Source: Candidatus Aminicenantes bacterium
GTDB lineage: Bacteria; Acidobacteriota; Aminicenantia; Aminicenantales; UBA4085
Assembly (NCBI GenBank): GCA_026393895.1
Contig: JAPKZG010000013.1
Location: 14,556-78,555, forward strand
Direction: 5' to 3'
Length of the DNA: 64,000 nucleotides
In this document: piece by piece, positions 1 through 27,308 of the stretch
Position numbering within the stretch: position 1 is the first letter of the stretch
Layout: each line of letters begins with the position of its first letter
Position numbers and translations under genes: made by a program
The notes under the pieces: generated by a model
Database searches by the model: none
What the model saw: only the letters and a program-made list of their open reading frames with translations
What the model was told of the DNA's origin: nothing

Positions 1-2148
1 CTGGGCCACCGCCTCTCTCTTCGCCTTCTTCTCTTCTTCTTTGGTCGCCGTGTATTGGACTTTGACCTTATACCCCTTAACCCGTTCTTCCCTTGTCATT
101 TCCGCGGCCGCATCCTCCTCAAGGAACGACAGCAGATCTTCTGGCTGGAAAAAGAAAATCTTGGACTGATCGGATTCGGATGTACTTTGGAATACCAAGA
201 CCTTAATGCTCTCAAGCATCTTTTTATCCGGGGAACAGAGAACCACTGTCTCATACCCTGCGGCGAGGCACTTCTGAACATTCTTCAATTCTTGCTCATC
301 GGACGATGAAATTGAGATTTCGCAGGCTATCTTTCTTCCATTCCGCTCAAGGCTGACATCGACTCGACCTGATCCGTCAAGAACGGGAAGCTCGATTGTC
401 GCCTTGTAACCCTTATCCTCCGCGATCTTCTTTATAAGATTCTGAAGGTAACGATGCTGAGAAATCGCTTTATCCTTTGCAGGCGGTGTCTCCACTTTGG
501 GCGGGACTACGACCGCTTCAACGTCAATTACCCTTCCTCCGGCCGGTAATTCTGCTTTCGGCACAGGCTTTGCTGGTGCTCGTTCTTTTCTGTAAAGCGT
601 CTCTTTTTGATACGGCCTGGCTTCCCTTTGAATCTCCGCTTCTCTCGCTGCACATTCAGCCTCAAGCTTTCCCCGCTCCACAAGATATTTCCGGCCAAAA
701 GGAATACCTTTGAACCATCTATCGAACTGTTCTTCAGTCTGCCCAAGTATCTCCGTAAATACTTCTTGGGCCGTTTCAATATAGGCAGTTTGAATCGGGA
801 TAACCCCGCCTTCGATCTTGTGCTTCACATAGCAAATTCTCGGCTCTAACGTCTGAAGCTCTTTCGTATGTTGCTCCCATTCTTCTCCCAGACTCCAATA
901 TCGAGGCTTAAACCCACTGACGTTCTTCACTTCAAAACCCGAATATTCGAAAGCTTCTTTGGCGAGAATCGAAGCGTCGTGCCGATTGAGCCGAAAATAG
1001 ACTTGAATTCCAGCATTCCCCAAGATCAAACTCCTCAATTCTTCGGGAATTTGGGCGAGCGTCTGATGAGCCATGATTAAGCTAAGGCCATATTTTCTCG
1101 CCTCAGATAAAACGACAGAGAACGATTCGCTGGCAAAGTTCTGAAATTCGTCAATATATAGATAAAACGGTAAACGCTTGGTTTGGGGAAGATCCGATCT
1201 TGAAAAAGCGGCCATCTGGATCTGGGCCATAAGCAGCGATCCAAGAAGATCAGCCGAGTCTTTCAACTTTCCCTTATCGAGTTTGATCAAGAGGATTTTT
1301 CGAGAATCCATGATCTCTCTGAGATTGAAAGAGCTTTTTGCGGATGAAAAAATATGCCTGATTCTCTCATCTGAGAAAAAGGCATTGATTTTATTCATCA
1401 CCGGCTCGATCCAGGTAATCTGGCTCCTGTCGGTTATGGTATCGAATCTTCGGAAATACTCTCTCGCTAAAGGATGACTGACTTTCTCCAAGATGCCCTG
1501 CCGAACGGCCCGATTGCTCAAGAATGCCGGTAGTTCGATTAAGGTCAATCCGGCCTCTCCCAAAGCAATCAATGAATTCCGCATCAGGTCTTCCATCCTC
1601 ACGCCCCAGGAGTCGGACCAGATTTTTCGGAAAGCGCAGATAAGTTCATTTGCCTGTTCCGCAAGAGGGACGCCAGGCATTTTTTCCAAAGGATTGAAGG
1701 TCACCGTGAAAATCGGATCAGTAGGATCAATGAGAATGACCTTGTCGGTTAATTCTGGCTCATCCGGGCTGAATTGCAGGATCAATAATCCTTTGACATC
1801 CTCGATCAAGTCCCCGTGCGGATCAATGACCCCGAAGCCGTTTCCTTTCTCGATATCTTGCTGAATCAGGTATTCTAGAAATTTTGTCTTGCCCGTTCCG
1901 GTAGCCCCGACAACGTAGAAATGCGTTGCTCTGTCTTTTTCTGAGATTTTAGCCAGCTGATAATCTTCTTTGTTCTCGGAATAATACCAGCCGAGATTGA
2001 GAGTATTGTCGGATACCTTATCGGATTTGCCTTCTTCCTGATTTATGAATTCTTCGTCATTGGATTTTATCTCTGTTTTTTCTTCGGGCGAAGCAGACTC
2101 ATTGGGATCTTCAAAAAGCTTTATTCTCTTTCTTTTAAATATACTCAT
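1..2148 (-). CDS. VirD4/TraG/TraD-like P-loop NTPase (coupling-protein family) with C-terminal PD-(D/E)xK-like (DUF4143/DUF234-like) domain; partial, 3' end beyond window start
   Basis: Manual translation of minus strand from ATG at 2148 gives uninterrupted ORF to window edge; Walker A 'GATGTGKT', Walker B 'YIDEFQNF'; paralogous to 13517..14836 product; C-terminal 'GRVDVSLERNGRKIACEIS' restriction-endonuclease-like fold signature; not in ORF track because no stop in window. Confidence 0.6.
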   Translation of the reverse strand, partial: MSIFKRKRIKLFEDPNESASPEEKTEIKSNDEEFINQEEGKSDKVSDNTLNLGWYYSENKEDYQLAKISEKDRATHFYVVGATGTGKTKFLEYLIQQDIEKGNGFGVIDPHGDLIEDVKGLLILQFSPDEPELTDKVILIDPTDPIFTVTFNPLEKMPGVPLAEQANELICAFRKIWSDSWGVRMEDLMRNSLIALGEAGLTLIELPAFLSNRAVRQGILEKVSHPLAREYFRRFDTITDRSQITWIEPVMNKINAFFSDERIRHIFSSAKSSFNLREIMDSRKILLIKLDKGKLKDSADLLGSLLMAQIQMAAFSRSDLPQTKRLPFYLYIDEFQNFASESFSVVLSEARKYGLSLIMAHQTLAQIPEELRSLILGNAGIQVYFRLNRHDASILAKEAFEYSGFEVKNVSGFKPRYWSLGEEWEQHTKELQTLEPRICYVKHKIEGGVIPIQTAYIETAQEVFTEILGQTEEQFDRWFKGIPFGRKYLVERGKLEAECAAREAEIQREARPYQKETLYRKERAPAKPVPKAELPAGGRVIDVEAVVVPPKVETPPAKDKAISQHRYLQNLIKKIAEDKGYKATIELPVLDGSGRVDVSLERNGRKIACEISISSSDEQELKNVQKCLAAGYETVVLCSPDKKMLESIKVLVFQSTSESDQSKIFFFQPEDLLSFLEEDAAAEMTREERVKGYKVKVQYTATKEEEKKAKREAVAQ

Positions 2149-2188
2149 TCGCCTGATTATATTCTACACAAAGAAAAAAGGAATTTTT

Positions 2189-2818
2189 TTAAGAAATTCC
2201 CAAAAAGCCTTTTGTCCTTCGATCGATTTTTGATGTATCCAATCCCTTTCCTGACATCATTTGTTCTACTGCTTCAATCATACATTGATGAACGCAGGTT
2301 ACGTAGGCCGTTAAATCCTGCTGATTAAATAGATTCAGATCGTCAAGGCCAACTGCTTTCCTTGTCCCTGGAAAAAGCGAAGCGATTGTCTGCCATACGT
2401 CCGGCATATATGTAAGATACCAAGAAACAAAAAGGGCATCGCCATAGTCATTTGCACACAGGTATGCTTTATAACAGCCCAGTTTAAGGTTTCGTCTATC
2501 AGCAACGACTAAAAAGGCTCTTGTTTCGCCTATTGCAGAAGAAGCAAAAGTTGGCCCTACCATAACTTCGTTCATTTCGATTGATGGAGCTTTAGATATT
2601 TCAATCAACTCTTTTGTTTTTGATATGACCTGATCTCTATTTCCTTTTGCTCCTCGAATTAAAGCTGACCAATTATCAAGGACTTCGGCTTTTCGTTCTG
2701 CGATGAGAATCAATATGCCGATCGCGGCAAACGTGAGCACTATAACGCTGGCCTTAATAGAAACGATTAAAAGCAGAATTCCTACGATTAAAAGCAAAAG
2801 AACGATTGGTTTTTTCAT
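2189..2818 (-). CDS. hypothetical membrane protein (two N-terminal TM helices)
   Basis: ORF 209 aa; hydrophobic N-terminus 'LLLLIVGILLLIVSIKASVIVLTFAAIGILILIA'; operonic with downstream ATPase gene (stop 2189, next start 2148). Confidence 0.45.
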   Translation of the reverse strand: MKKPIVLLLLIVGILLLIVSIKASVIVLTFAAIGILILIAERKAEVLDNWSALIRGAKGNRDQVISKTKELIEISKAPSIEMNEVMVGPTFASSAIGETRAFLVVADRRNLKLGCYKAYLCANDYGDALFVSWYLTYMPDVWQTIASLFPGTRKAVGLDDLNLFNQQDLTAYVTCVHQCMIEAVEQMMSGKGLDTSKIDRRTKGFLGIS

Positions 2819-2864
2819 ATTTCCCTCCTAAAATACCTTTATTTTATATATATTTATGATTATA

Positions 2865-3359
2865 TCAAGAATTTTTCTTCCGAGAGCAAGATGCAGCCAG
2901 GGCTACGGCTTCGATCATCCGCAGATGATATGCGTTTTTATGCGATTTCTCTTTATTTAACTCATGTATAAGGGCTGGATATTCCAAAATAATCCTCTCG
3001 GCCAGATTTCGCTTATTCGCCTTCCCATCCACTATAAAGAATTTCTCAAGCTCTTTGATGGAATGACTTTGAACCTTGATCCGCTTCTTCTTCCCCAATA
3101 CTTTTATTCTTGAAAATAAGAGTTCTAGATTCTTAGACGATCTCGAAGGATGGAGCCTTTTAATCGCCATTGCGCTTATGTCATAAAGCTCGATCTGTTC
3201 CCAAATGATATCGAGAATTCGATCCGCCTTTTCTTTTGTCCATTTTCCCGTAATAGTTTTCACTCGCCATTCCAAAAGATTGGAGCCGTCGAATATCGCA
3301 AGCCCGAGATACCGGGTGCCTGGATTGATTCCCAATATTCTATTATGTTCTCTGGTCAT
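2865..3359 (-). CDS. RuvC-like Holliday-junction resolvase family protein
   Basis: N-terminal 'ILGINPGTRYLGLAIFDG' matches RuvC/YqgF catalytic motif 'ILGIDPG.R.TG.A'; 164 aa typical size. Confidence 0.5.
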   Translation of the reverse strand: MTREHNRILGINPGTRYLGLAIFDGSNLLEWRVKTITGKWTKEKADRILDIIWEQIELYDISAMAIKRLHPSRSSKNLELLFSRIKVLGKKKRIKVQSHSIKELEKFFIVDGKANKRNLAERIILEYPALIHELNKEKSHKNAYHLRMIEAVALAASCSRKKNS

Positions 3360-3801
3360 AGCGTTTTAGCAGTTGTCGCAAAGGTTTTAAATTATTAAAA
3401 CCGTCCGTTCTGTTATTCTTGTTAATTAATTTTATTTCTTTATTATTGTTTGTGTGATCCTGCGTCACATACCTTGTGATCCGTCCGTCACATAGTTTGT
3501 GATTTAAAATCACATCTGGCTTCAAAAGAAAATATAGGCAGCGTCCATTAAGCCGTTTTTCTGCTAACAACTTGACTTTACGGTTGACTGTCTCCCGGCA
3601 GAGCCCGATTCGATCTGCTATCGTCTTTTGAGACGGAAAACACGTTTGGCTCTTGGAATTCGCATAAGAGGCCAAGACATTATAGACCGCAAGCCCGGTC
3701 GGCTTTAGAATATTGCCATATTGTTTCAAAATAGATTGGCTGATCCAATACCAATTCTTGTCATCTATTCGTCGAATATGATTTTGGGACTTGTGAATCA
3801 T
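3343..3801 (-). CDS. winged-helix/HTH DNA-binding protein (replication-initiator/DnaD-like N-terminal HTH); 3' end of ORF reads through a repeat array and may be over-called
   Basis: 'LAVYNVLASYAN...CFPSQKTIADRIGLCRETVNRKVKLL' classic wHTH; low-complexity Asn/Lys tail encoded by AT-rich repeat region 3441-3506. Confidence 0.45.
   Translation of the reverse strand: MIHKSQNHIRRIDDKNWYWISQSILKQYGNILKPTGLAVYNVLASYANSKSQTCFPSQKTIADRIGLCRETVNRKVKLLAEKRLNGRCLYFLLKPDVILNHKLCDGRITRYVTQDHTNNNKEIKLINKNNRTDGFNNLKPLRQLLKRYDQRT
3441..3506. repeat. array of GTCACATA-N2-TTGTGAT imperfect palindromes / TGTGAT half-sites (operator- or iteron-like)
   Basis: Read directly: tgtgtgatcc tgcGTCACATACCTTGTGATccgtccGTCACATAGTTTGTGATttaaaATCACAtc. 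Confidence 0.6.
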
Positions 3802-3953
3802 ATCTTCAATAATACTTCTTTCCTCAAACGTGCTCGCAGATGATTTGAGCGACGAGACAAAGATTCCGCCTCATTTCATTTATAGATTTACGAGACAGAC
3901 CCTGCATTTTAAGAATGCGGCGATATTTTTCATATATGTCGGGTCGTTTTCTT

Positions 3954-4232
3954 CTAGGCATGCTTTCGTCTCAGATATTCTTCCCTTTCTATTATCTTTC
4001 TCTTAATCATCCGGATAAGAGGAAAAAACAAAGCATCCACCAATACACTGTATATGCCTGACAATTTAATCACGTTAGTCAGGCTCGGCAGGCAAATGCC
4101 TTTTTCCCAGCGGGAGATCATTCCCGCACTCTTAAGATTCAGGATTTCCGCGACTTCCTTCTGCTTCAATCCGATAGCTTTTCTATATCTCCTTAGATTA
4201 TTCGGAATCTTTTTTATCTCGACCTTTTTCAT
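3954..4232 (-). CDS. XRE-family (Cro/CI-type) HTH transcriptional regulator
   Basis: 'LRRYRKAIGLKQKEVAEILNLKSAGMISRWEKG' canonical XRE HTH; 92 aa. Confidence 0.8.
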   Translation of the reverse strand: MKKVEIKKIPNNLRRYRKAIGLKQKEVAEILNLKSAGMISRWEKGICLPSLTNVIKLSGIYSVLVDALFFPLIRMIKRKIIEREEYLRRKHA

Positions 4233-4300
4233 ATGCTCTTGAATTAAGAATGATGTCTTTTCAGCTTAGGTCGAATGAAAATACAAAACAAGACGTAAAA

Positions 4301-4320
4301 AATTGCTTAAAAAGGCAATT
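4301..4320. promoter_or_regulatory. AATTGC-N8-GCAATT palindrome in divergent promoter region (candidate XRE operator)
   Basis: aattgcttaaaaaggcaatt read in sequence between divergent genes 3954..4232(-) and 4424..(+). Confidence 0.35.
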
Positions 4321-4423
4321 TTAGAGGATGTCTATGTAGAAATTGGGGATAAATCCATTTATTTATCGGATTACGCATTTTTTCCTGTCTTATATTCGAT
4401 TTATTCCTGCGTTATTCTGACTA

Positions 4424-4612
4424 ATGATGATTCTAAGCAAACGAGTAATTGAGGAATTTAAAGAGATCTACTATCGGGAATATGGAAAGAAAATCTCCGA
4501 CGAGGAAGCTCAAGAGATGGGACAAAATCTCCTTACTTTTTTTAAGATTATCTATCGGCCGATACCCGAAGATAAAAATAAGGAAAACAAAAGCCTCTCG
4601 GAATCCTCATAA
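4424..4612 (+). CDS. small hypothetical protein (62 aa)
   Basis: ORF divergent from XRE regulator, upstream of serine recombinase; no recognisable motif. Confidence 0.25.
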   Translation: MMILSKRVIEEFKEIYYREYGKKISDEEAQEMGQNLLTFFKIIYRPIPEDKNKENKSLSESS

Positions 4613-4665
4613 TTTCGGGCGCTTTTTTTTGACAATATTAATCTTCGCGCTACAATTAAATTAAT

Positions 4666-4687
4666 AAACCTTTTTATAAAAAGGTTT
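4666..4687. repeat. perfect 22-bp palindrome AAACCTTTTTATAAAAAGGTTT immediately upstream of serine recombinase gene (candidate recombination/operator site); second hairpin GGTCTCTTTGAGACC at 4706..4720
   Basis: Read directly in sequence; centred on TA dinucleotide. Confidence 0.5.
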
Positions 4688-4750
4688 GGGAATCTTTATC
4701 AAAAAGGTCTCTTTGAGACCCATTAACGGGTTCCCATGCCTTAATATCTT

Positions 4751-6520
4751 ATGCTTCGCTATTTCATCTACTGCCGAAAATCTACAGAAGCCGAAGACCG
4801 ACAGGTCCTTTCGCTTGAATCTCAAATAAACGAACTAAAACGACTCTCCGAGAGATTAAATCTCTCCGTTATTGACATCCTTATTGAATCTCGGTCAGCA
4901 AAGTCGCCAGGCCGACCGCATTTTAACGAAATGCTAAAACGAATTAGTCAGAAGAAGGCCGATGGGATTATCTGTTGGAAACTGGATCGCTTGGCAAGAA
5001 ATCCTATTGACGGAGGCCAGATCAGTTGGATGCTCCAAAAGGGGATTATTAAACATATCCAGACCTTCGATAGAGCCTACTTTCCTGAAGACAATGTCCT
5101 ATTGATGAATGTCGAGTTCGGAATGGCAAACCAATTTATCTTGGATTTGGGAAAGAACGTTAAAAGAGGGCTTAAAACGAAAGCTGAAAAGGGTTGGCTT
5201 CCAACGCTTGCGCCTCTTGGTTATTTAAATGAAAAAACAAGGGAAAAAGGAAAAAAAGAAATTCTTAAAGATCCCGAAAGATTTTCTCTAATAAAAAGGA
5301 TGTGGGACATGATGCTCACAGGAAATTACACCCCGCCAAAGATCGCTTATATAGCAAATAACGACTGGGGATACAAAACTCGGCAAGGAAAGCCATTGGT
5401 AAAAAGCACCATCTACCGGCTCTTTTCCAATCCTTTTTATTCGGGCTGGTTTGAATACCCGAAAGGAAGTGGCAACTGGTTAAAGGGAAGCCACGAACCG
5501 ATGATTACTCAAAAGGAATACGATAAAGTTCAAATACTTCTGGGTAAAAATGGCAAGCCTAGACTCAAAAAACACGAATTTGCGTTTACTGGTCTTATTC
5601 GATGCGGAGAGTGCGGAGCCACGGTCACGGCAGAAGAAAAAAACCAAATCATCTGCTCGAAGTGCAAATACAAATTCTCTTTAAATAACAGATACGAATG
5701 TCCAAAGTGTGCTACTCCTATTGAGATAATGAAGAAACCCACTATCCTCAATTATGTCTATTATCATTGCACAAAGAAAATAATGCCAGATTGCTCCCAG
5801 GGATATATAGAAGTAAATGAACTCGAAAAACAGATTGATTTTTATCTATCAAACATCCATATCTCGGAAGGATTTAAAAATTGGGCTATAAATAATCTAA
5901 AAGAAGAAAACGAGAAAGAAGCTTATTCAAGAGAATCAATCTTTGCTTCTCAAAGAAAAGCTTATGACAACTGCCTTAAGAAACTCGATAATCTTTTCCA
6001 ATTGAAAATCTCTCCTGCAAATACTGATGGGAGTCTTCTATCAGACGAAGAATACGGAAAACAAAAAATCGGATTTTTAAGAGAGAAAACCCGACTTGAA
6101 GAAATTATAAATGATAAAAGCGGCGGTATCGAGAAGTGGCTCCAAAAAGGAGAAAGAACTTTCAACTTCGCACTCAATGCTCGATATTGGTTTGAAAATG
6201 GGACACTCTTGGAGAAGTTTAAGATTTTAAAAGCTCTTGGCTCGAACCTGATTTTAAAAGACAAAAAACTTCATATTGATCTTAAAATACCTTTCACGGC
6301 TATAGGAACGGTCGTGAAGGAGGTTCCTACGGCCAGGTACGGGTTCGAACCTGAAAAATCAGACCAAAATGAAGCTAAACAAAACGATCTCTACTCCAAT
6401 ATTCCCATCGTGCTCCGCGCAATGAAGAAAGTTCGAACTTGGATCATCAGAAATGCTGATGCTTATGACGTTCCTGATTTGGAAAAGCCAACCGAGGATG
6501 CGCTTCCAATCCCCTTCTGA
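4751..6520 (+). CDS. large serine recombinase (resolvase/invertase catalytic domain + recombinase domain + zinc-ribbon)
   Basis: N-terminal 'YCRKSTEAEDRQVLSLESQ' (catalytic Ser region), 'DGIICWKLDRLARN'; Cys-rich zinc ribbon 'CGECGAT...CSKC...CPKC...YYHC'; 589 aa. Confidence 0.85.
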   Translation: MLRYFIYCRKSTEAEDRQVLSLESQINELKRLSERLNLSVIDILIESRSAKSPGRPHFNEMLKRISQKKADGIICWKLDRLARNPIDGGQISWMLQKGIIKHIQTFDRAYFPEDNVLLMNVEFGMANQFILDLGKNVKRGLKTKAEKGWLPTLAPLGYLNEKTREKGKKEILKDPERFSLIKRMWDMMLTGNYTPPKIAYIANNDWGYKTRQGKPLVKSTIYRLFSNPFYSGWFEYPKGSGNWLKGSHEPMITQKEYDKVQILLGKNGKPRLKKHEFAFTGLIRCGECGATVTAEEKNQIICSKCKYKFSLNNRYECPKCATPIEIMKKPTILNYVYYHCTKKIMPDCSQGYIEVNELEKQIDFYLSNIHISEGFKNWAINNLKEENEKEAYSRESIFASQRKAYDNCLKKLDNLFQLKISPANTDGSLLSDEEYGKQKIGFLREKTRLEEIINDKSGGIEKWLQKGERTFNFALNARYWFENGTLLEKFKILKALGSNLILKDKKLHIDLKIPFTAIGTVVKEVPTARYGFEPEKSDQNEAKQNDLYSNIPIVLRAMKKVRTWIIRNADAYDVPDLEKPTEDALPIPF

Positions 6521-6684
6521 GATTTATTCTAGGTCTGAGTTGGCTTTAAAACAAGTAGGGAGAATTTGCCGGATTCGGTAAATTGGGCTTAGCATTTCAA
6601 TTTGTAACCGATGTTTCCAGATGGAAATCAAGGGTTTTGGCGGTGTTTCACTGGTGCGTCTCGGTTTCCTAAAAACTATCCAGC

Positions 6685-8592
6685 CTAATCTTTATTGATC
6701 TGTCTTACAGATTTTACGGCCTTTAAAAGGCTCGCGAAGATATACGAAAGTGGGGCTATAATTTGAGCGATAATCTGAACGACCTCAAAATTATTCTTGG
6801 TCGCAAAAGCGCTTACAAAATTGTCCCAGAGATAAAAAAACAAAATATAATCAACGAGCAATGCTACGGCCGATTTTATAGTAAAGCAAAGCCAAACTAC
6901 TTTTTTCTTGGAGATTTTCTTTTCTGCCCTCTCGTTAGTTAATTGCGATCCGAGATCGGATATCGTTGATTCGTGTTCCCGAATCGTTTGGTCTTTGGCT
7001 ATGTCATCCTGACGTAAAGTCCTTTCAATTTCTACCACTGCATCGTGCATCATAGCGGCGTTATTGGAAAGACGAGCCCTATGGATAATTAAAAGAGTCG
7101 CTTTTATTTTTGTTTCGGGGAGCTCTCTCACTCGTTCCGTTTTTTCAGACAGTAATATTAAGTCACGCTTATCATATTTTTCTTTATTCGTTAAATCGTC
7201 GAAATCAGCGAATATCCTAAAGAGAGGGGCCAGGTCAGATGGATCATATGTAGCACCGCCACCATTCAAGGCAAGAATTTGAACCAACCCGAAAAGGTTT
7301 TGCCATAAGGGGTCGTCTTTTGGGCCGGCTTCTTTAAGGGCTAATGCGGTCATTGTTTGATCAACGGTCAACACGAATGCATTCCTATGTTTATCGCGTG
7401 ATTGAGCTAATTTCCAAAGGCGCGTATCGTGCCTTGCGGGCCCTTCAGATTTTTTTCTACCCGCAAATTCTTCATATATGCCTTGGATCTTATTGAATAA
7501 CACGCTATCTGCTGACGCGTTAAATTCAGTTCCTTCGACATTGATGCCTGTCAACATCTCGATATCAACCTCTCCCAATTTCGATGGAGTTTTTAATCCC
7601 TCGTCAAAAAATCTTTCAACGTCCTGTGTGGTACGGCATCCTGTTCTTAAAAGTCCTTGCGAAAAGATATCTTTCCGGTCCATGCCCTTAAGGGTCTCGA
7701 AGCTAAAGCTTTTCCAAAGATTGATTGAAACCGCGCGCTCTCTCATTCTGACAGTTTCATATTCTTCCGTTGTAAAATCAGCAATATAAATATTTATTCC
7801 AAGCGCCTTAGCTGAACGTCCCAGTGCTTTTAAAGCGTTTTCGGTCGTTTCGTTTTTGTATGCGGTCATTGCAAACAAAACATTCGTATCTATGATGAAA
7901 TCCGCATTTTTGTAACGATCCAATGCTAGCACTTCCGGGCTAATCTCGGCAGAGACGATTTTGGCCGACAGAAGCGAACCCATGAATCTAAACACTCTAT
8001 CTATGTCGTCGCTATTGTCGCTTGTTAAGAATTCTTTGTATCCTTGGAGCAGATCTCCCTCAAATTGATTCATCTTAAAATGTTTTATTAACGGCCGGAT
8101 AACTTCGTCAACGCGAAGCATCGGCATATTTCCATCGTTATATAGCGATAAAAGATTCTGTGATTGCGCGCCGAAATATACCTTGTTCGCTTCATTAAAC
8201 CAATGCCGGAGGGCTTCTCGGTCAATTTTCTTACTAAAATGACGATTTAAAATATCCTCTGTAACTTCTTCCGAATGCTTTAATGTTTTCTCAAGGTTCT
8301 CTTTCTCTTTGGGAACAAGTGACCACAATTCCTCTTTTTTAACGACCATTCGCCTCCCTTGTAAAATCTCTATAGCGGTTTCAAACGATTCAACAGGCAA
8401 GGAAGCTACCTGTATGAGCTCGGCCCCCTTTTTTGCTATTTCATCAATCTGCAGAGAGCGATCGTATTCAATAAAAAGAACCCAAAGAATCACTTTGGCG
8501 TAAGCAATGTCTCTAAGATGTGCTGTTTCTGGCGATAAACATAAAAAGGCATTTAATAATGCTTCCCTGATTTTTTCTAAAGAATTTTCCAT
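6685..8592 (-). CDS. large PIN-domain protein with C-terminal coiled-coil and transmembrane anchor (candidate nuclease/defence protein)
   Basis: 'FIIDTNVLFAMTAY' and 'INIYIADF' PIN acidic motifs; C-terminal hydrophobic segment 'VVWLCFTIKSAVALLVDYILFFYLW'; 635 aa. Confidence 0.55.
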   Translation of the reverse strand: MENSLEKIREALLNAFLCLSPETAHLRDIAYAKVILWVLFIEYDRSLQIDEIAKKGAELIQVASLPVESFETAIEILQGRRMVVKKEELWSLVPKEKENLEKTLKHSEEVTEDILNRHFSKKIDREALRHWFNEANKVYFGAQSQNLLSLYNDGNMPMLRVDEVIRPLIKHFKMNQFEGDLLQGYKEFLTSDNSDDIDRVFRFMGSLLSAKIVSAEISPEVLALDRYKNADFIIDTNVLFAMTAYKNETTENALKALGRSAKALGINIYIADFTTEEYETVRMRERAVSINLWKSFSFETLKGMDRKDIFSQGLLRTGCRTTQDVERFFDEGLKTPSKLGEVDIEMLTGINVEGTEFNASADSVLFNKIQGIYEEFAGRKKSEGPARHDTRLWKLAQSRDKHRNAFVLTVDQTMTALALKEAGPKDDPLWQNLFGLVQILALNGGGATYDPSDLAPLFRIFADFDDLTNKEKYDKRDLILLSEKTERVRELPETKIKATLLIIHRARLSNNAAMMHDAVVEIERTLRQDDIAKDQTIREHESTISDLGSQLTNERAEKKISKKKVVWLCFTIKSAVALLVDYILFFYLWDNFVSAFATKNNFEVVQIIAQIIAPLSYIFASLLKAVKSVRQINKD

Positions 8593-8836
8593 GTATAGAT
8601 TACATCACAATTTTATTTAAAAATAAAGTGGCGAGTGATCCGTCTCGGTAGCTCGATAATGCGCTGACTGTGGCTGCGAATTAAATAATATTCGAAAATG
8701 GATTATGGAAAATTCAGACAATCCCTCTATCCTCTTTTCTAAATCTGAGGATAAAAATCAGCTAAATATAAGGATAACAAGCAATTAATATTTCGTAAAG
8801 ATTAAGAAGGCTTCACTAGGGCTCATTTGGCTTTAA

Positions 8837-8868
8837 TAAAAAGGCACAAACGCGCACGTGCCTTTTAT
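8837..8868 (-). terminator. rho-independent terminator downstream of surface-protein gene
   Basis: AAAAGGCAC-loop-GTGCCTTTT hairpin; T-run on minus strand. Confidence 0.55.
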
Positions 8869-8974
8869 ATTAATATCGGAAAAACATTTATTGTTTGTCA
8901 ATTCTTGAAAATAAATATTCACAATTGTTATTTTCGTAAATAAATTATATCTCACAATAATTTTATCAATAAAA

Positions 8975-16480: not shown

Positions 16481-16500
16481 CTAGGAAGTGAATAGCATAT

Positions 16501-19311: not shown

Positions 19312-19521
19312 GTTTTAATATTATCCCCCTTTTATTAATTTTTCAATTTAATCCAATTAAATGAGAATATATGGAATCCCCTTACGTCTATAATAATGAG
19401 GCGCAACATTCCGCTGTCATGCGGCCACTGTCTCAGCCGGAAGGCCGAAAACAACCGGCCTCCGGCCGCCTCAATTTATAAGTCTTTCTATTTTTCTTAT
19501 TTCGTTTCTATTCTTCTATAT

Positions 19522-20376: not shown

Positions 20377-20384
20377 CTAAATAT

Positions 20385-20418
20385 TAGAACAACTATTAGA
20401 ACAAATCAATATGTTCTT
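20385..20418. promoter_or_regulatory. LexA-box-like operator: TAGAACA direct copy plus AGAACA-N8-TGTTCT palindrome
   Basis: tatTAGAACAactatTAGAACAaatcaataTGTTCTtgaca read in sequence; GAAC-N..-GTTC is the Gram-positive-type LexA box core. Confidence 0.55.
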
Positions 20419-20444
20419 GACACAACAATTATATATGTTAAAAT
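20417..20444 (+). promoter_or_regulatory. sigma70-like promoter of LexA-like repressor operon (-35 TTGACA, 16-bp spacer, -10 TAAAAT)
   Basis: Hexamers read directly; -35 overlaps the palindrome; ATG at 20463. Confidence 0.55.
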
Positions 20445-20462
20445 ATATACAGAGTCAATTTT

Positions 20463-21071
20463 ATGTATAAAGAACTCCATCCGATTCAAAAGAAGCTGTT
20501 AGATATTTTGAAAAACAATATCGAAGATCCCCTGACGATCCGAGAGATACAGGGCATGCTGGACGCTTCATCTACGAGCGTAGTTGCTTATCATATCGCT
20601 CAACTGGAAAAAAGAGGATTCTTGAAAAAGAATCCGCTGAATCCAAAGGATTATCACATATTGAAGGATGGGCCGGAAAAGCAAATCGTCTATCTAAACC
20701 TATACGGCCTGGCTCACTGCGGAGCTAGAGGATCGATTTTAGAGGGCGACCCTATTGACAGGATTCCTCTATCGGCCAGGCTGATTTCCTTTCCAGCAAG
20801 CGAAGCATTCATGGTGAAGGCTAAAGGCGATTCCATGGAGCCTCTAATCCATGAAGGAGATTTGATCATAGCCAGAAAATGCAATTCGGCTGAAAACGGT
20901 AGAATCGTTGTCTGCATTAACAACGGAGAGGCGCTGATAAAGAAAATTAAAAGAGAAAGCAAAAATACGATCCTCATTTCAGAAAACTCCAAACATCCTC
21001 CCTTTCTGGCCTCCAAAAAGTTCAGGATTGAAGGCGAAGTCAGAGGCATTATAACCAGCAGAGTCGTCTAA
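20463..21071 (+). CDS. LexA/CI-like repressor (winged HTH + S24 peptidase domain)
   Basis: C-terminal 'AKGDSMEP' (Ser nucleophile) and 'LIKKIKRE' (Lys) S24 motifs; 202 aa; stop overlaps vsr start (TAATG). Confidence 0.8.
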   Translation: MYKELHPIQKKLLDILKNNIEDPLTIREIQGMLDASSTSVVAYHIAQLEKRGFLKKNPLNPKDYHILKDGPEKQIVYLNLYGLAHCGARGSILEGDPIDRIPLSARLISFPASEAFMVKAKGDSMEPLIHEGDLIIARKCNSAENGRIVVCINNGEALIKKIKRESKNTILISENSKHPPFLASKKFRIEGEVRGIITSRVV

Positions 21072-21472
21072 TGGATAATCTGACAAAAGAACAGCGAACA
21101 CTTTGCATGTCTCGAATAAGAAGCAAGAACACAAAGCCTGAGCTGGTCGTCCGCAAGGTGCTTTCAAAAATAGGGATTCGATACCGCCTCCATAATTCGA
21201 AACTGCCTGGAAGGCCCGATATAACGATTTCTAAAGCCAAAACGATTATTTTCATCAACGGCTGCTTCTGGCATCAGCATAAGAACTGCAAAAAGCAAGC
21301 TTTGCCCGCGTCCAACAAAGATTACTGGGAGAAGAAACTGAAAAGAAATATTAAAAAACAGAAACAGGATGTTCGGGCTCTAAGAAAGCTCGGCTGGAAA
21401 GTCCATAAGATATGGGAATGCCAGACGGCAGACGAAACAAAATTAACTAAAAGAGTTATGCAAATACTATGA
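21071..21472 (+). CDS. vsr: very-short-patch repair endonuclease
   Basis: 'TKPELVVRKVL...GIRYRLH...LPGRPDI....IFINGCFWHQH' canonical Vsr motifs; 133 aa. Confidence 0.85.
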   Translation: MDNLTKEQRTLCMSRIRSKNTKPELVVRKVLSKIGIRYRLHNSKLPGRPDITISKAKTIIFINGCFWHQHKNCKKQALPASNKDYWEKKLKRNIKKQKQDVRALRKLGWKVHKIWECQTADETKLTKRVMQIL

Positions 21473-22593
21473 AACAGGAAATAATATTCAAATTGGCTGA
21501 GTTATTCTGCGGACCGGGCGGCCTGTCTTTTGGGGCGATGTCCGCTTTTGTCACCGATTCAAAGGGCAAAACATATAAAGTCAAGCCCGTCTGGGCAAAT
21601 GATATTGACCCTGACGCCTGCAAAACCTTTGCCCGCAATATCCACGGCGGGAATGCCAAAAGGGTTATCTGCGCTCCAATCGAATCCGTTGATTTTGATG
21701 ATATCCCTGCTTTTGACGCCTTGGCGTTTGGCTTTCCCTGCAACGATTTCAGCGTTGTCGGAGAGCAAAAAGGTTTTCACGGTAAATACGGGCCTTTGTA
21801 TACTTATGGCGCAAAAGCAATAGACCTTTGCAATCCAAAATGGTTTATTGCTGAAAACGTTGGCGGGCTGCAGAGCGCCAACAACGGATCTGCATTTTCA
21901 AAAATTCTCCATGATCTCGAACACGCGGGCAAAGGGTATCGCCTGATTGCGCATTTATACAAATTTGAGGAATACGGCGTTCCTCAAACGCGGCACAGGA
22001 TCGTGATAATTGGAATTCGGAAAGATTTAAATCTGGAATTCAAAGTCCCCGCTCCGACTACGGTCAATAAATACGTTTCCGCTAGATCGGCCATTGAAAA
22101 CCCTCCCATTCCAGCTTTTACGCCGAACCAGGAGATGACTGCTCAATCCAATCGTGTCGTTGAAAGACTTAAGCATATACCTCCGGGCGAGAATGCCTGG
22201 TTCAGTGGCCTGCCCGAGCATTTGCAGTTGAATGTGAAACAAGCTAGATTAAGCCAGATATACAAAAGGCTAGACCCAGACAAGCCGTCCTATACCATTA
22301 CAGGCAGCGGAGGGGGCGGAACTCATGGATATCATTGGAGTGAAAACAGGGCTCTTACCAATCGAGAACGGGCCAGAATTCAGACCTTTCCCGATGATTT
22401 TGTATTTGAAGGCTCCAAAGAATCCGTCAGGAAGCAAATCGGAATGGCCGTCCCGCCGCAGGGTGCAAGGGTGATCGTTGAAGCGGTTCTGAAAACGTTT
22501 GCCCGCATTCCCTACAAATGGGTTTCACCCAAGCTAATCAACAGTGATTCGGCTAACAGCGGCCAGAAGTTACTTTTTGATGCGCGGGCTTAG
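21469..22593 (+). CDS. dcm: DNA (cytosine-5)-methyltransferase
   Basis: Motif I 'FCGPGGLSFG', motif IV 'GFPCNDFS', motif VI 'ENVGGL'; 374 aa; ATGA overlap with vsr. Confidence 0.85.
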   Translation: MKQEIIFKLAELFCGPGGLSFGAMSAFVTDSKGKTYKVKPVWANDIDPDACKTFARNIHGGNAKRVICAPIESVDFDDIPAFDALAFGFPCNDFSVVGEQKGFHGKYGPLYTYGAKAIDLCNPKWFIAENVGGLQSANNGSAFSKILHDLEHAGKGYRLIAHLYKFEEYGVPQTRHRIVIIGIRKDLNLEFKVPAPTTVNKYVSARSAIENPPIPAFTPNQEMTAQSNRVVERLKHIPPGENAWFSGLPEHLQLNVKQARLSQIYKRLDPDKPSYTITGSGGGGTHGYHWSENRALTNRERARIQTFPDDFVFEGSKESVRKQIGMAVPPQGARVIVEAVLKTFARIPYKWVSPKLINSDSANSGQKLLFDARA

Positions 22594-23429
22594 AGCAGTC
22601 CTAAAAGCTCCTGCCAGCTTTCCTTGTTTTTATGCAATTGTCCTGATTTCTTAACGAAGCGCACCCCGTCAAATTCCTGGCCTGGAATGCTGTTCACTTT
22701 CTCCAATTCATTGATACGGCACCAGCCCGCGATTTCGCAGAACATATTGGAGAAATCAGGCATTTTATCCTTGTAGCTTGGAAAGTGCTGTTCGCCTTTG
22801 ATGACTTGTATTACACGATCTTTTGTCAACCTCAGCAAATGATCGTCGGGGATGTCAGGGCGGCAAAAGATATAAAACTCAGACCTTCGCTCTTTTATAT
22901 TTATTTCGTTCTCTCCCAAAACAAGATACGCGCTCTTCGGCTTTGATGATTTAATCCCTATTCCTATCTTCGGATCGCGCTTTTCTCCTTTTTCAATGAC
23001 ACCGATAATATCTTGAGGAACGATATTATCATGGATTCCAAAATCCAATTCGACGCTGACATCAAATTCTTTTTCGAAGAATTTTTTAACTGCGACTTCC
23101 GCCAGCTGGCCTTTCACCCAGTTCGTTATTTTTTGTCCGAATTCTCTCTGCCTTGCCGTCCCCCAATCAGATAAGACGTACCCTCTGAAATGCTGAGCCA
23201 GGGCGAAATCCAAACAAAGGGAGTAATCCTCGAACGTCAGCTCTACAGTCCTCCACTTAAAAGCTACGGCCCATTCTGCTAGCTCGTCCTTAATGAAATA
23301 ATACCGGCCCCGGCCGCTTTTCCTATCCATGCACTTGAATTCATCTGCATTTTGAAAATAGTTGGCGAAAGTCTTCTCGTCCAATGACAAATATTCGGCA
23401 GCTTCTTTTTTGGACAAGGGTTTGTTCAT
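22590..23429 (-). CDS. putative type II restriction endonuclease (cognate of adjacent m5C MTase)
   Basis: Convergent with MTase, immediately downstream of C-protein gene; possible PD-(D/E)xK 'VELDFGIHD...IGIGIKSSK'; assignment by context. Confidence 0.4.
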   Translation of the reverse strand: MNKPLSKKEAAEYLSLDEKTFANYFQNADEFKCMDRKSGRGRYYFIKDELAEWAVAFKWRTVELTFEDYSLCLDFALAQHFRGYVLSDWGTARQREFGQKITNWVKGQLAEVAVKKFFEKEFDVSVELDFGIHDNIVPQDIIGVIEKGEKRDPKIGIGIKSSKPKSAYLVLGENEINIKERRSEFYIFCRPDIPDDHLLRLTKDRVIQVIKGEQHFPSYKDKMPDFSNMFCEIAGWCRINELEKVNSIPGQEFDGVRFVKKSGQLHKNKESWQELLGLL

Positions 23430-23433
23430 ATAA

Positions 23434-23658
23434 TTACTTGTTCAGAAAATAATTAAGATTTCTTTTATAAATATCCGCAAATTTCTTCAGTTGAATTACA
23501 TCTACCCGTCTTTGTCCAGATTCGATTTTTGAGATGTATGACTGCGATTTTTTCAACAGCTTAGCTACGGCCGCTTGATCAAGGCCAGCCTCAAGCCGAG
23601 CCTTCTTCAGCCTGTCCACCAAGGAGCTGTGTTCTTTTGAATAAATGGTATTTGCCAT
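23434..23658 (-). CDS. controller (C) protein-like XRE HTH regulator of R-M system
   Basis: 74 aa, 'LKKARLEAGLDQAAVAKLLKKSQSYISKIESGQR' XRE HTH; directly upstream of putative REase on same strand. Confidence 0.65.
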   Translation of the reverse strand: MANTIYSKEHSSLVDRLKKARLEAGLDQAAVAKLLKKSQSYISKIESGQRRVDVIQLKKFADIYKRNLNYFLNK

Positions 23659-23753
23659 AAATTATAGCTTATGTTATAAGTATATATTCCATTATGTAAT
23701 ATGCCAAATTGGAATACGAACTTTCTTCATTTCCGCTTGGCGGATTTTTATAA

Positions 23754-24653
23754 TTAGTCGCCAAGCCAGTTCTGCCGCCTTAGCATCTTTTCAAACTTCA
23801 ATCCCCACCATTTATATTTGCCCCAAGGCCTATAATGCCTATGGACAAAGCTCGTAACGTTTCGGCACCTAAAATTTTTCTTTATATAGGAGTTGACCTC
23901 AGAATCCACTGGAATCCGATCATAATATCCGGCAAGGATTAATAGATGGGCAGCGGCATATGGCCCGAAGCCTCGTAATCGAACTGCCATTTCGTAGGCG
24001 ACATCATAGGGCAGCGTGGCGTTTTCCAAGCTGGCTGGACCGGAATCGTTAGAAAATGACCGGGCTAGCTGTTTTAACGCTACCGCTCGATAACCTATTG
24101 GAATTCTGCGGCGCAGATCGTCAAGACGCTCATCAGCCAGCGCAGAAGCCAAAGGAAAAGGAAATCTTCCGCTGGGAGCAGGAGCAGAATAGTCAGCAGA
24201 ACAAATCTTCTCGCACATCTTTTGCGTTAGCGCCCAGGAGCAGTTTGTCGTAAATAAAGTTTTTGCGGCATCCTCCCATAGTGTTACGCCGCGCAGAAGA
24301 CGGCCTGCCCCCTTTCGTACCAGTCCTGGATATGGATCACCTATTTTTAAGGCGATCTTGAAAAGCCCTGTTGTTTCCTCTTTCAAACCGAGAATCCGAG
24401 CCAGCACAGCATCAATTCGTTTTAAAGAATTTGATTCGATCTTCTTTTTAGAGCAGATAACTCCTGAGATAGAGCGCTCGTCCTGCTGAATCGAAACATC
24501 GACGGCTTGGCTGTCAATAAGAAGAGCAAATTCCAAGCGGCTGTGCTTTTTATCCCAGGAGAACGGAGCAAGATTAACCCAGCCGTGCGTATGACAGGTT
24601 ACAAAAAGATCGTACCATTTGGGGCAGGGATATTTTCTATATGCTTTAAACAC
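23754..24653 (-). CDS. HhH-GPD superfamily DNA glycosylase (AlkA/Ogg-like)
   Basis: 'LRGFGPYAAAHLLILAGYYDRIPVDSEV' helix-hairpin-helix + Pro/Asp catalytic motif; 299 aa. Confidence 0.5.
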   Translation of the reverse strand: MFKAYRKYPCPKWYDLFVTCHTHGWVNLAPFSWDKKHSRLEFALLIDSQAVDVSIQQDERSISGVICSKKKIESNSLKRIDAVLARILGLKEETTGLFKIALKIGDPYPGLVRKGAGRLLRGVTLWEDAAKTLFTTNCSWALTQKMCEKICSADYSAPAPSGRFPFPLASALADERLDDLRRRIPIGYRAVALKQLARSFSNDSGPASLENATLPYDVAYEMAVRLRGFGPYAAAHLLILAGYYDRIPVDSEVNSYIKKNFRCRNVTSFVHRHYRPWGKYKWWGLKFEKMLRRQNWLGD

Positions 24654-24784
24654 AATTCTTTCGTCTGGATAGCTTTCTTAATTTATATTTTACAAATTGA
24701 AATTTCAATAGCAACCGCTTTTCTCAATCCTCCTCCCCGCATTGATTATTGTGATAAAATATCTCAAGTGCAAGAGTGAAGTAG

Positions 24785-26287
24785 ATGGAAAAGAATAAGC
24801 CCGTCGGCATTTGGATTCGGGTCTCGACCGAAGACCAAGCCAAAGGCGAAAGCCCGGAACATCACGAGAAGCGCGCCCGATACTATGCCGAATCCAAGGG
24901 CTGGCAAATAAAAGAGATATATCACTTAGAGGCGGTCAGCGGGAAGTCGGTCATGGGTCACCCGGAGACCCAGAAAATGCTCGATCATATCAAGTCCGGC
25001 CATATCACCGGACTCATTTTTTCCAAACTGGCCCGACTCGCCCGAAATACCAGAGAATTGCTGGAATTTGCAGACATTTTCAGAAAATATAACGCCGACC
25101 TGATCTCTCTCCAAGAAGCTATCGATACCTCTTCCCCGGCTGGACGGCTTTTCTATACCATGATTGCAGCCATGGCCCAATGGGAGCGGGAAGAAATATC
25201 CGATCGGGTCGCGGCCTCCGTCCCTATTCGGGCAAAACTCGGAAAACCGACAGGCGGACAAGCGGCTTATGGCTACCAATGGGTAAACAAACAGCTTGTG
25301 CCTGACCCTAAAGAAGCGCCGATACGGAAACTGATCTATGAGATGTTTCTTGAACACCAGAGGAAAAAAACCATAGCACGGCTCCTGAACGAGGCCGGAT
25401 ACCGAACCAGAAACGGCTCGAAATTCACGGATACGACCGTAGGAAGACTTTTAAGAGATACCACGGCCAAAGGGTTTCGCCGGGCGAATTGGACCAAAGG
25501 ACCGCCCGATAAAGGCCAAAAAAGGATAATCAAAGCCCAATCCGAATGGATAAATGTTCCGGTCGAGCCCATAATCTCTGAAGAACTCTGGAATCGGTGC
25601 AACGCGATCCTCGACGACCAGGAGAAAAGAGGCAAGAGACCAACTCGGAAAACCGTTCAGCTGTTTGCCGGATACACCTTCTGCGAGTGCGGAGACAAGA
25701 TGTACGTTCCCTCGAACTCTCCAAAATACGTCTGTTACAAATGCCGGAATAAAATCGGAACAACTGATTTAGAAGAAATCTTCCACCAACAGCTTAAAAC
25801 GTTTTTTTTCTCTTCGGGTGAGATCACTAAATATCTCAGCCAGGCTGACCAAGTGATAAAAGAAAAAGAGAACCTACTAAAGACAAATGGAGAAGAAAAG
25901 CGGAAAACGGAACAGGATATGGATAAAATATATCGGGCTTATACCAATGATGAGATCTCTATGGACAGCTTTGGAAAGCATTACCGGCCACTCGAAGAAA
26001 GGCTTAAACAGATAGACAATCAGCTTCCCGAGATTCAGGGAGAAATCGACTTCCTTAAAATCCAGTATTTATCCTCTGATCAGATATTCAATGAAGCCAA
26101 AGACCTTTATTCCCGCTGGCCTCAGCTTACTTCTGAAGAAAAAAGAAAAATCATTGAAAACATTACAGAAAATATAAAGATCGGAAAAGAAGACGTTACG
26201 ATCAACCTCACTTATCTTCCCTCTTCTTTCGAATTGATGGCAACTGAGCAACGCAATCACAGGGATTCATCGCCGCAACGAACATGA
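24785..26287 (+). CDS. large serine recombinase / integrase of the island
   Basis: '[21 protein letters not shown]' catalytic Ser region, '[13 protein letters not shown]', recombinase domain, zinc ribbon 'CECGDKMY...CYKC'; last ~8 codons and stop lie in GC-rich host sequence. Confidence 0.85.
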
Positions 26288-27308
26288 ACGCGGCCGGAAA
26301 TGTGGCGCTGTGGGCTGACCGGACCACCGTCACGGTCCCGTCCTCCAACGGTTGACGCAGATCCTCTAAAACCTTGCGTCGGAATTCGGGTAATTCGTCG
26401 AGAAACAAAACCCCAAGATGGGCCAAACTGACCTCGCCGGGTCGGGGCACCGCGCCCCCGCCGATCAATCCGGCATCGGTGACCGTATGATGCGGCGCGC
26501 GAAACGGCCGGCGGCCGACCGCTCCCTTCCCTTTCAAATACCCGGCTGCGCTGTAAACCTGGGTCACCTGGATGATTTCCTCGAACGTCATGTCGGGAAG
26601 GATCGAGGGCAGGCGCCGGGCGATCATGGTTTTGCCCGAACCCGGTGGGCCGATAAGGAGAACGTTGTGACCGCCGGCCGCGGCTACTTCCAGGGCCCGT
26701 TTGACGTGATGCTGGCCCTTGACTTCGCGGAAATCCGGCCCCGGAGGCGGTTCCTCGACCAACTCGGAAAGCGCGTACCGACTCGGTGGAAGCCGGCCCG
26801 GGTCGTGGAGGAAGGAGACGACCTGGGGCAGGTCGGACACCCCGAACACGTCGAGGCCGTCGAGCAAAGCCGCCTCTTTTTCATTGTCCTTGGGGACGAC
26901 GATGCCCTTGAATTTCCGGGTCCTGGCCAGGATGGCCGCCGAAAGGACGCCCTTGACCGGTTTGATCCTTCCGTCCAGGGCCAACTCTCCTAAAAAACAA
27001 TAATCCTGGAGCGGCGGAACCGGGACGATGTTCAGGAAGGCGAGATGCCCGAGGGCGATAGCCAGGTCGAACGACGGACCTTCCTTCCGGCGGTCGGCCG
27101 GGGCGAGGTTGATCGTAACCTTGCGGGGCTGAAAATCATAGCCGCAATTCTTGAGCGCCCCCTTGACCCGCTCCTTGCTTTCCCGGACCGAGGCGTCGGG
27201 AAGCCCGACGATGATGAAATCGGGCAGGCCGTTGCCGATGTCGACTTCGACCTCGACGATGTAGGCCTCGATGCCCTGGAGGGCGGAACTGGACGTTTTT
27301 ATGAGCAT
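26208..27308 (-). pseudogene. comM: comM/yifB Mg-chelatase-like AAA+ ATPase, 3'-truncated by island insertion (frame reads into island after 'AAMNPCDC')
   Basis: '[13 protein letters not shown]' Walker A, '[10 protein letters not shown]' Walker B, 'AAMNPC' sensor region then divergence; C-terminal ~140 aa missing. Confidence 0.8.

Follow-up and report, generated by a model that had tools for sequence, protein, structure and literature searches.

A serine-recombinase island inside comM of a Candidatus Aminicenantes genome, with an integrase frame that crosses attP in unintegrated relatives

We analysed a stretch of 64,000 nucleotides (hereafter the window) from Candidatus Aminicenantes bacterium, contig JAPKZG010000013.1, positions 14,556 to 78,555 of the forward strand. 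Its left part is an AT-rich island that lies inside comM (yifB) and carries, at the junction, the gene for a large serine recombinase (LSR), whose last codons and stop are supplied by host DNA. In relatives that have the uninterrupted attachment (att) site of the element, attP, the same reading frame runs through attP into a segment coding for two helix-turn-helix (HTH) domains. We conclude, with a probability of roughly 80%, that an element of ~28 kb was put into comM by its own LSR through an attP located inside an int-HTH frame, and that integration split this frame. An LSR island in comM with a strong GC contrast is in itself ordinary; the informative part is the host-completed open reading frame (ORF). 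The features at the junction are the following.

1..26259: visible part of the island, GC 0.41, with a backbone common to the unintegrated loci L002, L030, L085 and L086
24785..26287, plus strand: large serine recombinase (integrase, int), 500 aa, Pfam Resolvase and Recombinase, island-coded over 24785..26260
26237..26259, plus strand: P arm of attR, ATGGCA-ACTGA-GCAACGCA-ATCA, within the last int codons (..MATEQRNH), matching the left arm of attP in relatives
26260..26261, plus strand: crossover dinucleotide CA, antisense of TG in the Cys350 codon of comM
26262..26290, plus strand: B' arm of attR, GGGATTCATCGCCGCAACGAACATGAACG, host DNA antisense to comM, giving the integrase tail and stop
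26259..27308, minus strand: comM (yifB) 5' fragment, native residues 1-350, Pfam ChlI and Mg_chelatase

The host side (26262..64000) has a GC content of 0.605, and the switch spans ~100 nt around 26250, from 0.35 at 26101-26200 to 0.60 at 26301-26400. An earlier, sequence-only reading of the window had put the island at 38-40%, which is about right, and the host at about 65%, which is slightly high. Its placement of the boundary at 26250-26265, inside comM, agrees with the crossover found by comparison with attP and attL of relatives, and its proposal that the island was inserted in comM beside an LSR is borne out by the junction sequence and domain matches. Both truncations that it described are also present. 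The comM ORF (366 aa) starts at 27308 on the minus strand, is native as far as ..AAMNPC, ending at Cys350, and then runs past the junction through 16 island-coded residues to a stop at 26208. The integrase ORF is finished by eight host codons and a stop, antisense to comM (RDSSPQRT plus stop, 26261..26287, AGG GAT TCA TCG CCG CAA CGA ACA TGA). Pfam scores of the comM fragment are strong (ChlI, E 5e-45; Mg_chelatase, E 4e-75), the latter covering only profile positions 1-162 of 207. Intact ComM has ~517 aa (in L011, ..AAMNPCPCGYF..SGPLLDR..), and ~165 residues are absent from the window copy.

The integrase has a Resolvase domain at residues 9-151 (Pfam E 1.2e-30), with the catalytic Ser14 read from the sequence in the motif RVSTEDQ, and after it a Recombinase domain (PF07508) at residues 175-278 (E 1.1e-18). 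A Cys-x-Cys...Cys-x-x-Cys zinc-ribbon-like motif and a coiled-coil-like stretch at ~350-460 are visible further on, and PF13408 is annotated on several close homologues. The nearest solved structures are those of the TP901-1 (best, catalytic domain, 1.3e-19), SprA, Bxb1-like and PhiC31 integrases, and a SprA-SprB fusion chain (PDB 9dxd) is also among the solved relatives. Judged from these domains, the 490-residue core appears to be a complete LSR.

Comparison of att sites located the point of strand exchange. The window junction reads ATGGCA-ACTGA-GCAACGCA-ATCA-CA-GGGATTCATCGCC.., i.e., the left arm of the attP palindrome, CA and antisense comM. Only CA is common at the switch point to attP (..ACTT-CA-TTCC..), attL (..GGGA-CA-TTCC..) and the window attR (..ATCA-CA-GGGA..), and the crossover is therefore 26260-26261. 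The attP pattern of the family is GGCAACRCA-N4-CA-N4-TGCGTTGCC, in which the arms GGCAACRCA and TGCGTTGCC (the latter within the P' arm) are inverted repeats. In L002 and L003, attP (GGGCAACGCA-ACTT-CA-TTCC-TGCGTTGCC) is a perfect 9-bp inverted repeat around the central CA, and the palindrome was upheld in a 15-sequence comparison. These sites are of the LSR type, in that their arms are inverted repeats, the dinucleotide between the arms is not a palindrome and the ends lack a long direct repeat. TG is invariant in Cys codons, and the polarity of serine integrases needs a non-palindromic dinucleotide, as CA is. The LSR encoded beside the junction probably catalysed the insertion and may be able to reverse it.

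The rest of the 64-kb window contained neither a comM 3' fragment nor a second att arm. No copy of the P' arm was found in the window with up to two mismatches allowed, and thus no nested or tandem copy of the comM-island element is present here. Scans of the window for Rfam families and tRNAs gave no matches, implying that the integration site is not of the tRNA type. The right flank of the comM interruption is seen in the window itself, the left flank in locus L088 and in 30 genomes described below.

The host-derived tail recurs throughout the closest part of the integrase family. The integrase has thousands of homologues, and tails were analysed in the best 120 (~70-100% identical), whose named sources are Aminicenantes, Scalinduaceae, Planctomycetota, Chloroflexi, Aerophobetes and Patescibacteria; one of them (P0001, from a Ca. 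Aminicenantes metagenome-assembled genome) is the window integrase at 100% identity. A comM-antisense tail was present in 107 of the 120, of which 104 were classed by script (..QRNx followed by [RTKM][DG]S and then W/S/L..) and three, unclassified by it, were assigned by reading. Of these proteins, 76 have a tail of 8 aa and 23 one of 3 aa. Tails match the antisense of ATG-AAY-CCN-TGY (M-N-P-C) and of the preceding Ala codons, with an early TAG stop when the Ala codon is GCT; the integrase bodies are conserved, and it is the tail that follows the codon usage of the host. From their tails, over 100 copies, each assembled independently, thus sit at the same place in comM.

These copies bear on whether the junction is genuine at all. 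The window comes from a metagenome-assembled genome and its composition changes abruptly, so that an assembly chimera between an AT-rich organism or element and a GC-rich genome had to be considered. However, the break falls exactly at the LSR crossover dinucleotide, in a conserved comM motif and beside the cognate integrase, the same junction type occurs in the >100 independently assembled homologues, and the reciprocal junction occurs in 30 genomes. Because more than 100 independent copies share the comM junction, a chimera is effectively excluded.

Integrases 65-94% identical to that of the window occur in Aminicenantes, Planctomycetota, Chloroflexota, Acidobacteriota, Bacteroidota, Desulfobacterota, Nitrospinota, Gemmatimonadota and candidate phyla radiation bacteria, and the near-universal ComM motif AAMNPC-PCG as target explains a host range across these phyla. 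The element family keeps a GC content of ~0.38-0.49 in hosts of many phyla, which fits a promiscuous element rather than a single donor; the one distant AT-rich donor previously suggested for the island cannot be named.

The left end of the island had been expected beyond position 1, and the evidence agrees. The window edge truncates the leftmost gene, which codes for a large ATPase; the full-length product (P0121, 728 aa) is on the same 112.6-kb NCBI contig, showing that the contig runs on leftwards. Positions 5-2731 of the window are 88.6% identical at the nucleotide level to L089, and positions 52-1995 are 83.8% identical to L088; these 84-89%-identical relatives run ~2.0-2.2 kb further to their left junction. 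By this comparison, the window element is predicted to end ~2.0-2.2 kb left of position 1 and to total ~28.4 kb.

The arrangement predicted for the left end is present in L088, a 356-kb contig whose large ATPase is 86% identical to that of the window. In that contig the ATPase is followed by a 455-aa gene and then, on the opposite strand, by a two-HTH segment; next come the junction, a comM 3' fragment (Mg_chelatase_C, 3.5e-33) and host genes. GC steps from ~0.38 to 0.51-0.57. The junction reads ..ACATCCTCG-CA-CCGT-TGTGTTGCC-CTTTTGCCAT.., with CTCG directly before CA. If joined to the window integrase at the crossover, the L088 HTH segment is in frame (..EQRNH/TVVLPFCHLTLQ.., protein ..QRNH/TVVLPFCH.., the slash marking the junction). 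The P' arm of the L088 lineage is CCGT-TGTGTTGCC as compared with the usual TTCC-TGCGTTGCC (L088 14200-14290 against window 26237-26290), and comM of this Aminicenantes type reads NPC/EDVFRG.. instead of the usual NPC/PCGY.., which suggests that att arms and host target have co-adapted in this lineage. In L089, the left junction (CA-CCTT-TGCGTTGCC) abuts non-comM DNA and supports synteny, not a comM junction.

The reciprocal junction was also found more widely. An alignment of the HTH segment, scanned against one genome per species, detected 71 loci in many phyla. Among 54 HTH-segment junctions in genomes, 30 are comM-type attL and 8 are attP-type; the other 16 are considered below. In the 30 species-representative genomes with attL, CCGCAGGGAC-like sequence, antisense to comM C-P-C-G, lies immediately before the HTH segment (ATTCCTGCGTTGCC..), and the upstream consensus, GTCGGGGTCGCCGAAGTAGCCGCAGGGGCA, corresponds to comM C-P-C-G-Y-F-G-D-P read in antisense. 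From L088 and these genomes we infer that the left end of the window copy has the same structure of HTH segment, attL and comM 3' fragment.

What integration separates becomes visible in copies with attP. Among the 120 closest homologues, nine have a length of 633-656 aa and diverge at the same point, where most of the others have their comM-derived tails, into IPALPFCH.. followed by two Xre-type HTH domains. Eleven loci with an intact int carry the attP form (L002, L003, L006, L030/L080, L075, L078 and L083-L087), and 13 further attP sites were found by pattern search in JGI metagenomes. In the attP-form loci with intact int, one ORF of ~490-510 plus 148-164 codons reads through attP into two HTH_3 domains. 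The segment beyond attP comprises ~150 codons for a Pro-rich linker and two Xre/Cro-type HTH domains, and this module resembles the repressor domains of P22 C2, 434, SinR and ICEBs1 ImmR. No comM was present in any attP-form contig, and element genes occur on both sides of attP in L002 and L003. Beyond the HTH segment, attP contigs carry a large ATPase (1-6 kb away, on the opposite strand) and a 209-aa gene, which are the leftmost genes of the window; upstream of int they carry a small ATPase and a Cas4-like gene, both of which are also in the window. Because genes are shared on both sides of attP, the attP contigs correspond to circular permutations of the island. An attP within a longer int-HTH frame therefore appears, from these reading frames, to be the family-wide arrangement, and the host-completed ORF of the window to be its visible half.

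These data are consistent with the following sequence of events. The LSR would recombine its palindromic attP with the comM codons for ..AAMNPC, exchanging strands at CA 26260-26261, and would thereby cut comM after residue 350. As attP lies inside the int frame, the same reaction would cut int, leaving in the integrated copy a 490-residue core with 8 comM-antisense residues, and the remaining ~150 HTH codons would stay at the far left end beside the comM 3' fragment. Excision would rejoin the two parts into an Int-HTH protein of ~640-650 aa.

A more modest account is that the insertion is real and the int-HTH read-through incidental: Int would function equally well with any tail, the HTH protein would be made alone from the TTG in the P' arm or an internal ATG, and the split of the frame would have no regulatory meaning. 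The completeness of the 490-residue core would allow this, and gene callers give free HTH ORFs of 146 aa from TTG in L011 and of 120 aa from ATG in L088. Moreover, the attP arms constrain the sequence, so that the absence of stops within the arms is uninformative. The region past the arms, however, speaks differently: in 11 of 11 attP-form loci with intact int the HTH frame is the int frame, and the ~25 codons that separate the P' arm from the first HTH are free of stops. Linker residues P16, Y21 and P22, which lie outside the att arms, are invariant as amino acids, indicating that the linker is translated. Finally, an in-frame ATG before the HTH segment is lacking in 16 of the 30 attL copies, and in the others its position varies. 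Shared frame, lack of stops after the P' arm, conserved linker and ATG-less attL copies together argue for a selected fusion, and we consider incidental read-through unlikely, although it is the strongest of the competing explanations.

Several observations weigh against the proposal of an element that splits its own int-HTH frame on entering comM. The left end of this copy lies outside the window, and 16 of the 54 HTH-segment junctions are neither comM-type nor attP-type, lying in other contexts. The fused ORF is known only in relatives 65-74% identical to the window integrase; within the closest lineage (>80% identity), no attP-form copy was found. No attP-form contig was shown to be circular (terminal overlaps were absent, and most long contigs were seen only in part). 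A free HTH protein could be initiated at a TTG that is conserved in the P' arm or, as in L088, at an ATG. As for the integrase, the zinc-ribbon family PF13408 gave no score in the window protein at E <= 0.01.

Two further types of HTH-segment context were observed. A similar upstream motif, ..ACTTCATGC.., which is neither comM nor int, is present at L009@10001 and in L023. Multiple P'-arm/HTH copies occur within one region in L009 (7000, 10001, ~14382 and ~16923) and L037 (5308 and 10001), and L017, L036 and L048 represent multiple such copies on the Bryobacterales chromosome OZ250179.1. The multiple copies and odd junctions suggest tandem accretion or alternative target sites.

Within the proposal of a frame split by integration, we infer that the Int-HTH fusion is made and is functionally distinct from the truncated integrase. 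Our best guess for the HTH module is DNA binding tied to the excised state, which may regulate element genes or the activity and direction of the integrase. It is possible, though we would put it somewhat short of even odds, that the int gene acts as a built-in sensor of recombination state, coding for Int-2xHTH when excised and for a bare integrase with a host-coded tail, plus an orphan HTH, when integrated.

The host-derived tail could also be the look of a dead-end copy, that is, of a stranded and immobile insertion. No excised form or empty site of the window lineage was observed, truncated int genes lie next to attP in L037, L076, L077, L079 and L081, and attL remnants lie beside an intact comM in L011, L012, L039 and L065. 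On the other hand, both the window int, with its catalytic Ser, and the P arm are intact, the reading frame of the comM 5' fragment has stayed open to the junction, and integrases 88-94% identical in other contigs point to recent activity. We regard a stranded copy as improbable.

Some genomes retain only part of the element. At least six genomes of different phyla (L011, L012, L039, L065, L009 and L057) contain attL, the HTH segment and a little cargo, without an integrase. In these, the attL remnant adjoins a duplicated partial comM 3' fragment of 150-500 bp, 80-95% identical to the real one (in L039 only 55 bp at 100% is visible, as the contig end cuts it), and an intact full-length comM lies 0.8-8 kb beyond the duplicate. 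In L011 (9649-13744), for example, a 517-aa comM occupies 12191..13744, and 9649-10001 duplicates 12318-12670 at 95%. This looks like insertion of a circle with an attL-type junction, or homology-assisted repair of comM.

The gene content of the island bears on what kind of element it is. Its remaining features are listed below, with strand where assigned.

1..1599, minus strand: large VirD4/TraD-like (HerA-FtsK superfamily) ATPase, backbone, cut by the window edge, Pfam TraG-D_C and T4SS-DNA_transf
2189..11999: second cargo region, with a second LSR, a 635-aa PIN-like protein and an 822-aa PKD-domain protein (Pfam)
2189..2818: 209-aa gene, the only gene of the second cargo region common to relatives
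4751..6520, plus strand: second LSR, 589 aa, Resolvase, Recombinase and Zn_ribbon_recom, unrelated to the island integrase
12256..14836: backbone block (Pfam, NCBIfam, PADLOC), the same block as in L030/L080
12256..13044, minus strand: Cas4-like PD-(D/E)XK nuclease, backbone
13004..13378, minus strand: 124-aa protein, backbone
13517..14836, plus strand: small VirD4/TraD-like ATPase, backbone, also in L002 and L006
14814..24653: variable cargo between backbone block and int, including a bPH_2 protein and DUF932 (Pfam)
16501..19311, minus strand: TrlF-family ATPase, NCBIfam 484.8 bits at a cut-off of 350, with C-terminal similarity to anti-phage Ppl
20463..21071: LexA-like S24 repressor (Pfam)
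21071..21472: Vsr (Pfam)
21469..22593: C5 DNA methylase (Pfam)
22590..23429: type II restriction endonuclease (PADLOC REase_II)
23434..23658: small Xre HTH (Pfam)
23754..24653: Ogg-like protein (Pfam)

The backbone common to relatives consists of int, the HTH segment, the two ATPases, the Cas4-like nuclease with its small neighbour, and the 209-aa gene. The two ATPases are paralogous, ~40% identical (window 1-1599 and 13517-14836; L002 145-1482 and 14689-16905), and score above Pfam cut-offs for TrwB_AAD_bind, TraG-D_C and T4SS-DNA_transf; they are far below the NCBIfam equivalog cut-offs and are HerA- and Mad8-like too. No relaxase or type IV secretion system component scored with Pfam, NCBIfam or PHROGs among the scanned island ORFs (~2 kb of the element is outside the window, and several ORFs have no family). 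Likewise, no replication initiator was recognised in the island, the only hint being a weak winged-helix match to initiator N-termini at 3343-3801.

A prophage inserted by a phage-type serine integrase, as A118 is in comK of Listeria and phage WO sr1WO in an Mg-chelatase gene, would be another natural interpretation of such an island: LSRs are typical of phages, the nearest annotated relatives of the integrase in phage collections are Bacillus and Anoxybacillus phage integrases, and a LexA-like repressor and Xre regulators are present. These phage integrases are, however, at most 30% identical to that of the window, and no relative above 30% identity turned up in collections of cultured phages and plasmids. 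Pfam and PHROGs gave no score in the island ORFs for any capsid, tail, portal, terminase or lysis family, the attP pattern had 0 matches in IMG/VR, and the conserved backbone is one of VirD4/TraD-like ATPases. A prophage is thus very improbable. Insertion by Tn7-like genes or by a tyrosine recombinase was also considered and dropped, as no such genes are present. From its gene content, the element is best described as an integrative, defence-carrying island that is probably mobilisable.

None of the genes at 14814..24653 was found in related loci, and they are therefore cargo. The TrlF gene, Ppl-like by PADLOC, lies in the lowest-GC stretch (0.28-0.33), and the methylase, Vsr and restriction endonuclease genes make up a Dcm/Vsr/type II system. 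In L002 and L003, defence-like cargo fills the positions flanking int and the HTH segment. L002 cargo (2220-4589 and 13106-14443) includes SMODS and SLATT, Abi_C and an RHS toxin-like gene, and L003 cargo (2115-5739) an OLD-family ATPase with a UvrD helicase, a Gabija-like pair. The closest relatives, L088 and L089, lack the second LSR of the window as well as the genes around it. This LSR may be cargo or the sign of a nested element, and a small Xre HTH gene (3954-4232, minus strand) is located near it. The island also has a 23-bp repeat at 3453-3503 (2.3 copies). In the host part, a 33-bp tandem repeat is present at 32721-32855 (4.1 copies, 86% matches), and GC dips to 0.525 at ~41-42 kb and to 0.55-0.56 at 49-53 kb.

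Several known systems resemble the window element in part. The Mg-chelatase/ComM gene is the most frequent single LSR target, accounting for 12.4% of predicted site-specific LSRs, and competence genes are enriched among targets (Durrant et al. 2022, PMC10083194). Phage WO sr1WO occupies the Wolbachia Mg-chelatase gene and has its LSR and its HTH_XRE genes at opposite ends (PMC9203015). Targeting of comM by an LSR, which the sequence-only reading had singled out, is not notable in view of these two reports. Like the LSR elements of the former study, the window element lies inside a ComM-family gene and disrupts it; unlike them, its family is at most 30% identical to cultured phage and plasmid integrases, has uncultured hosts of many phyla, and has attP inside the int-HTH ORF. 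As in sr1WO, the window family has an LSR and Xre HTH at opposite element ends; sr1WO, however, is a tailed prophage whose HTH_XRE genes are, by description, separate and not the 3' part of the recombinase gene. Accessory cargo in the comM hotspot is also a feature of islands of Proteobacteria such as the AbaR/Tn6022 type of Acinetobacter, which carry Tn7-like transposition genes. The window island shares the comM site and accessory cargo with these, but has an LSR, and no Tn7-like genes were found in scans.

Attachment sites inside genes are known from tyrosine integrases. In SSV1-type 'suicidal' integrases of archaeal viruses and plasmids, which a review describes as exclusive to archaea, att lies inside int, integration splits the gene, thereby destroying the enzyme, and excision restores it (PMC8371274). 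The window family also has att inside int; in contrast, its enzyme is a bacterial serine recombinase, and a cut after the complete core removes only the accessory HTH. Integration-dependent immunity of mycobacteriophage BPs and relatives, which have a tyrosine integrase, uses an attP inside the repressor gene (PMC4557955, PMC3694055). As in BPs, integration in the window family changes the C-terminus of a DNA-binding protein, and the integrated and excised states encode different proteins. The differences are that here integration splits int, the gene of a serine recombinase, and detaches an HTH module from it; in BPs, according to work attributed to Broussard et al. 2013, integration reportedly removes a degradation tag from the repressor. 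Engineered fusions of integrases with recombination directionality factors (RDFs), including SprA-SprB (PDB 9dxd) and PhiC31 Int-gp3, show that an added C-terminal module can set the direction of recombination. The attP form of the window family likewise codes for an LSR with an extra C-terminal module on one polypeptide; unlike the engineered fusions, this one is natural and would be made and broken by recombination, and its module is a tandem Xre HTH and not a known RDF, although an RDF-like role was considered for it. No description of this family, or of a bacterial LSR whose ORF spans attP and that detaches an accessory DNA-binding module on integration, was found in the full-text literature searched.

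Across uncultured phyla, these elements spread defence genes of the restriction-modification, TrlF/Ppl-like, CBASS-like and Gabija-like kinds, and they knock out a competence gene on arrival. The family also offers a defined att system, with a short palindromic attP, an attB formed by ComM AAMNPC-PCG and a crossover on the invariant TG of a Cys codon. Serine integrases are widely used in genome engineering, and the control of integration versus excision is known for few of them; a family in which the reaction gives the integrase a DNA-binding module or takes it away would be a directly testable natural switch. If int is indeed a sensor of recombination state, this state would set the direction or efficiency of recombination, or the expression of the transfer and cargo genes of the element. 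The family would then parallel, in nature, the engineered integrase-RDF fusions and would be a bacterial serine analogue of the archaeal tyrosine integrases and mycobacteriophage repressors that have att inside a gene.

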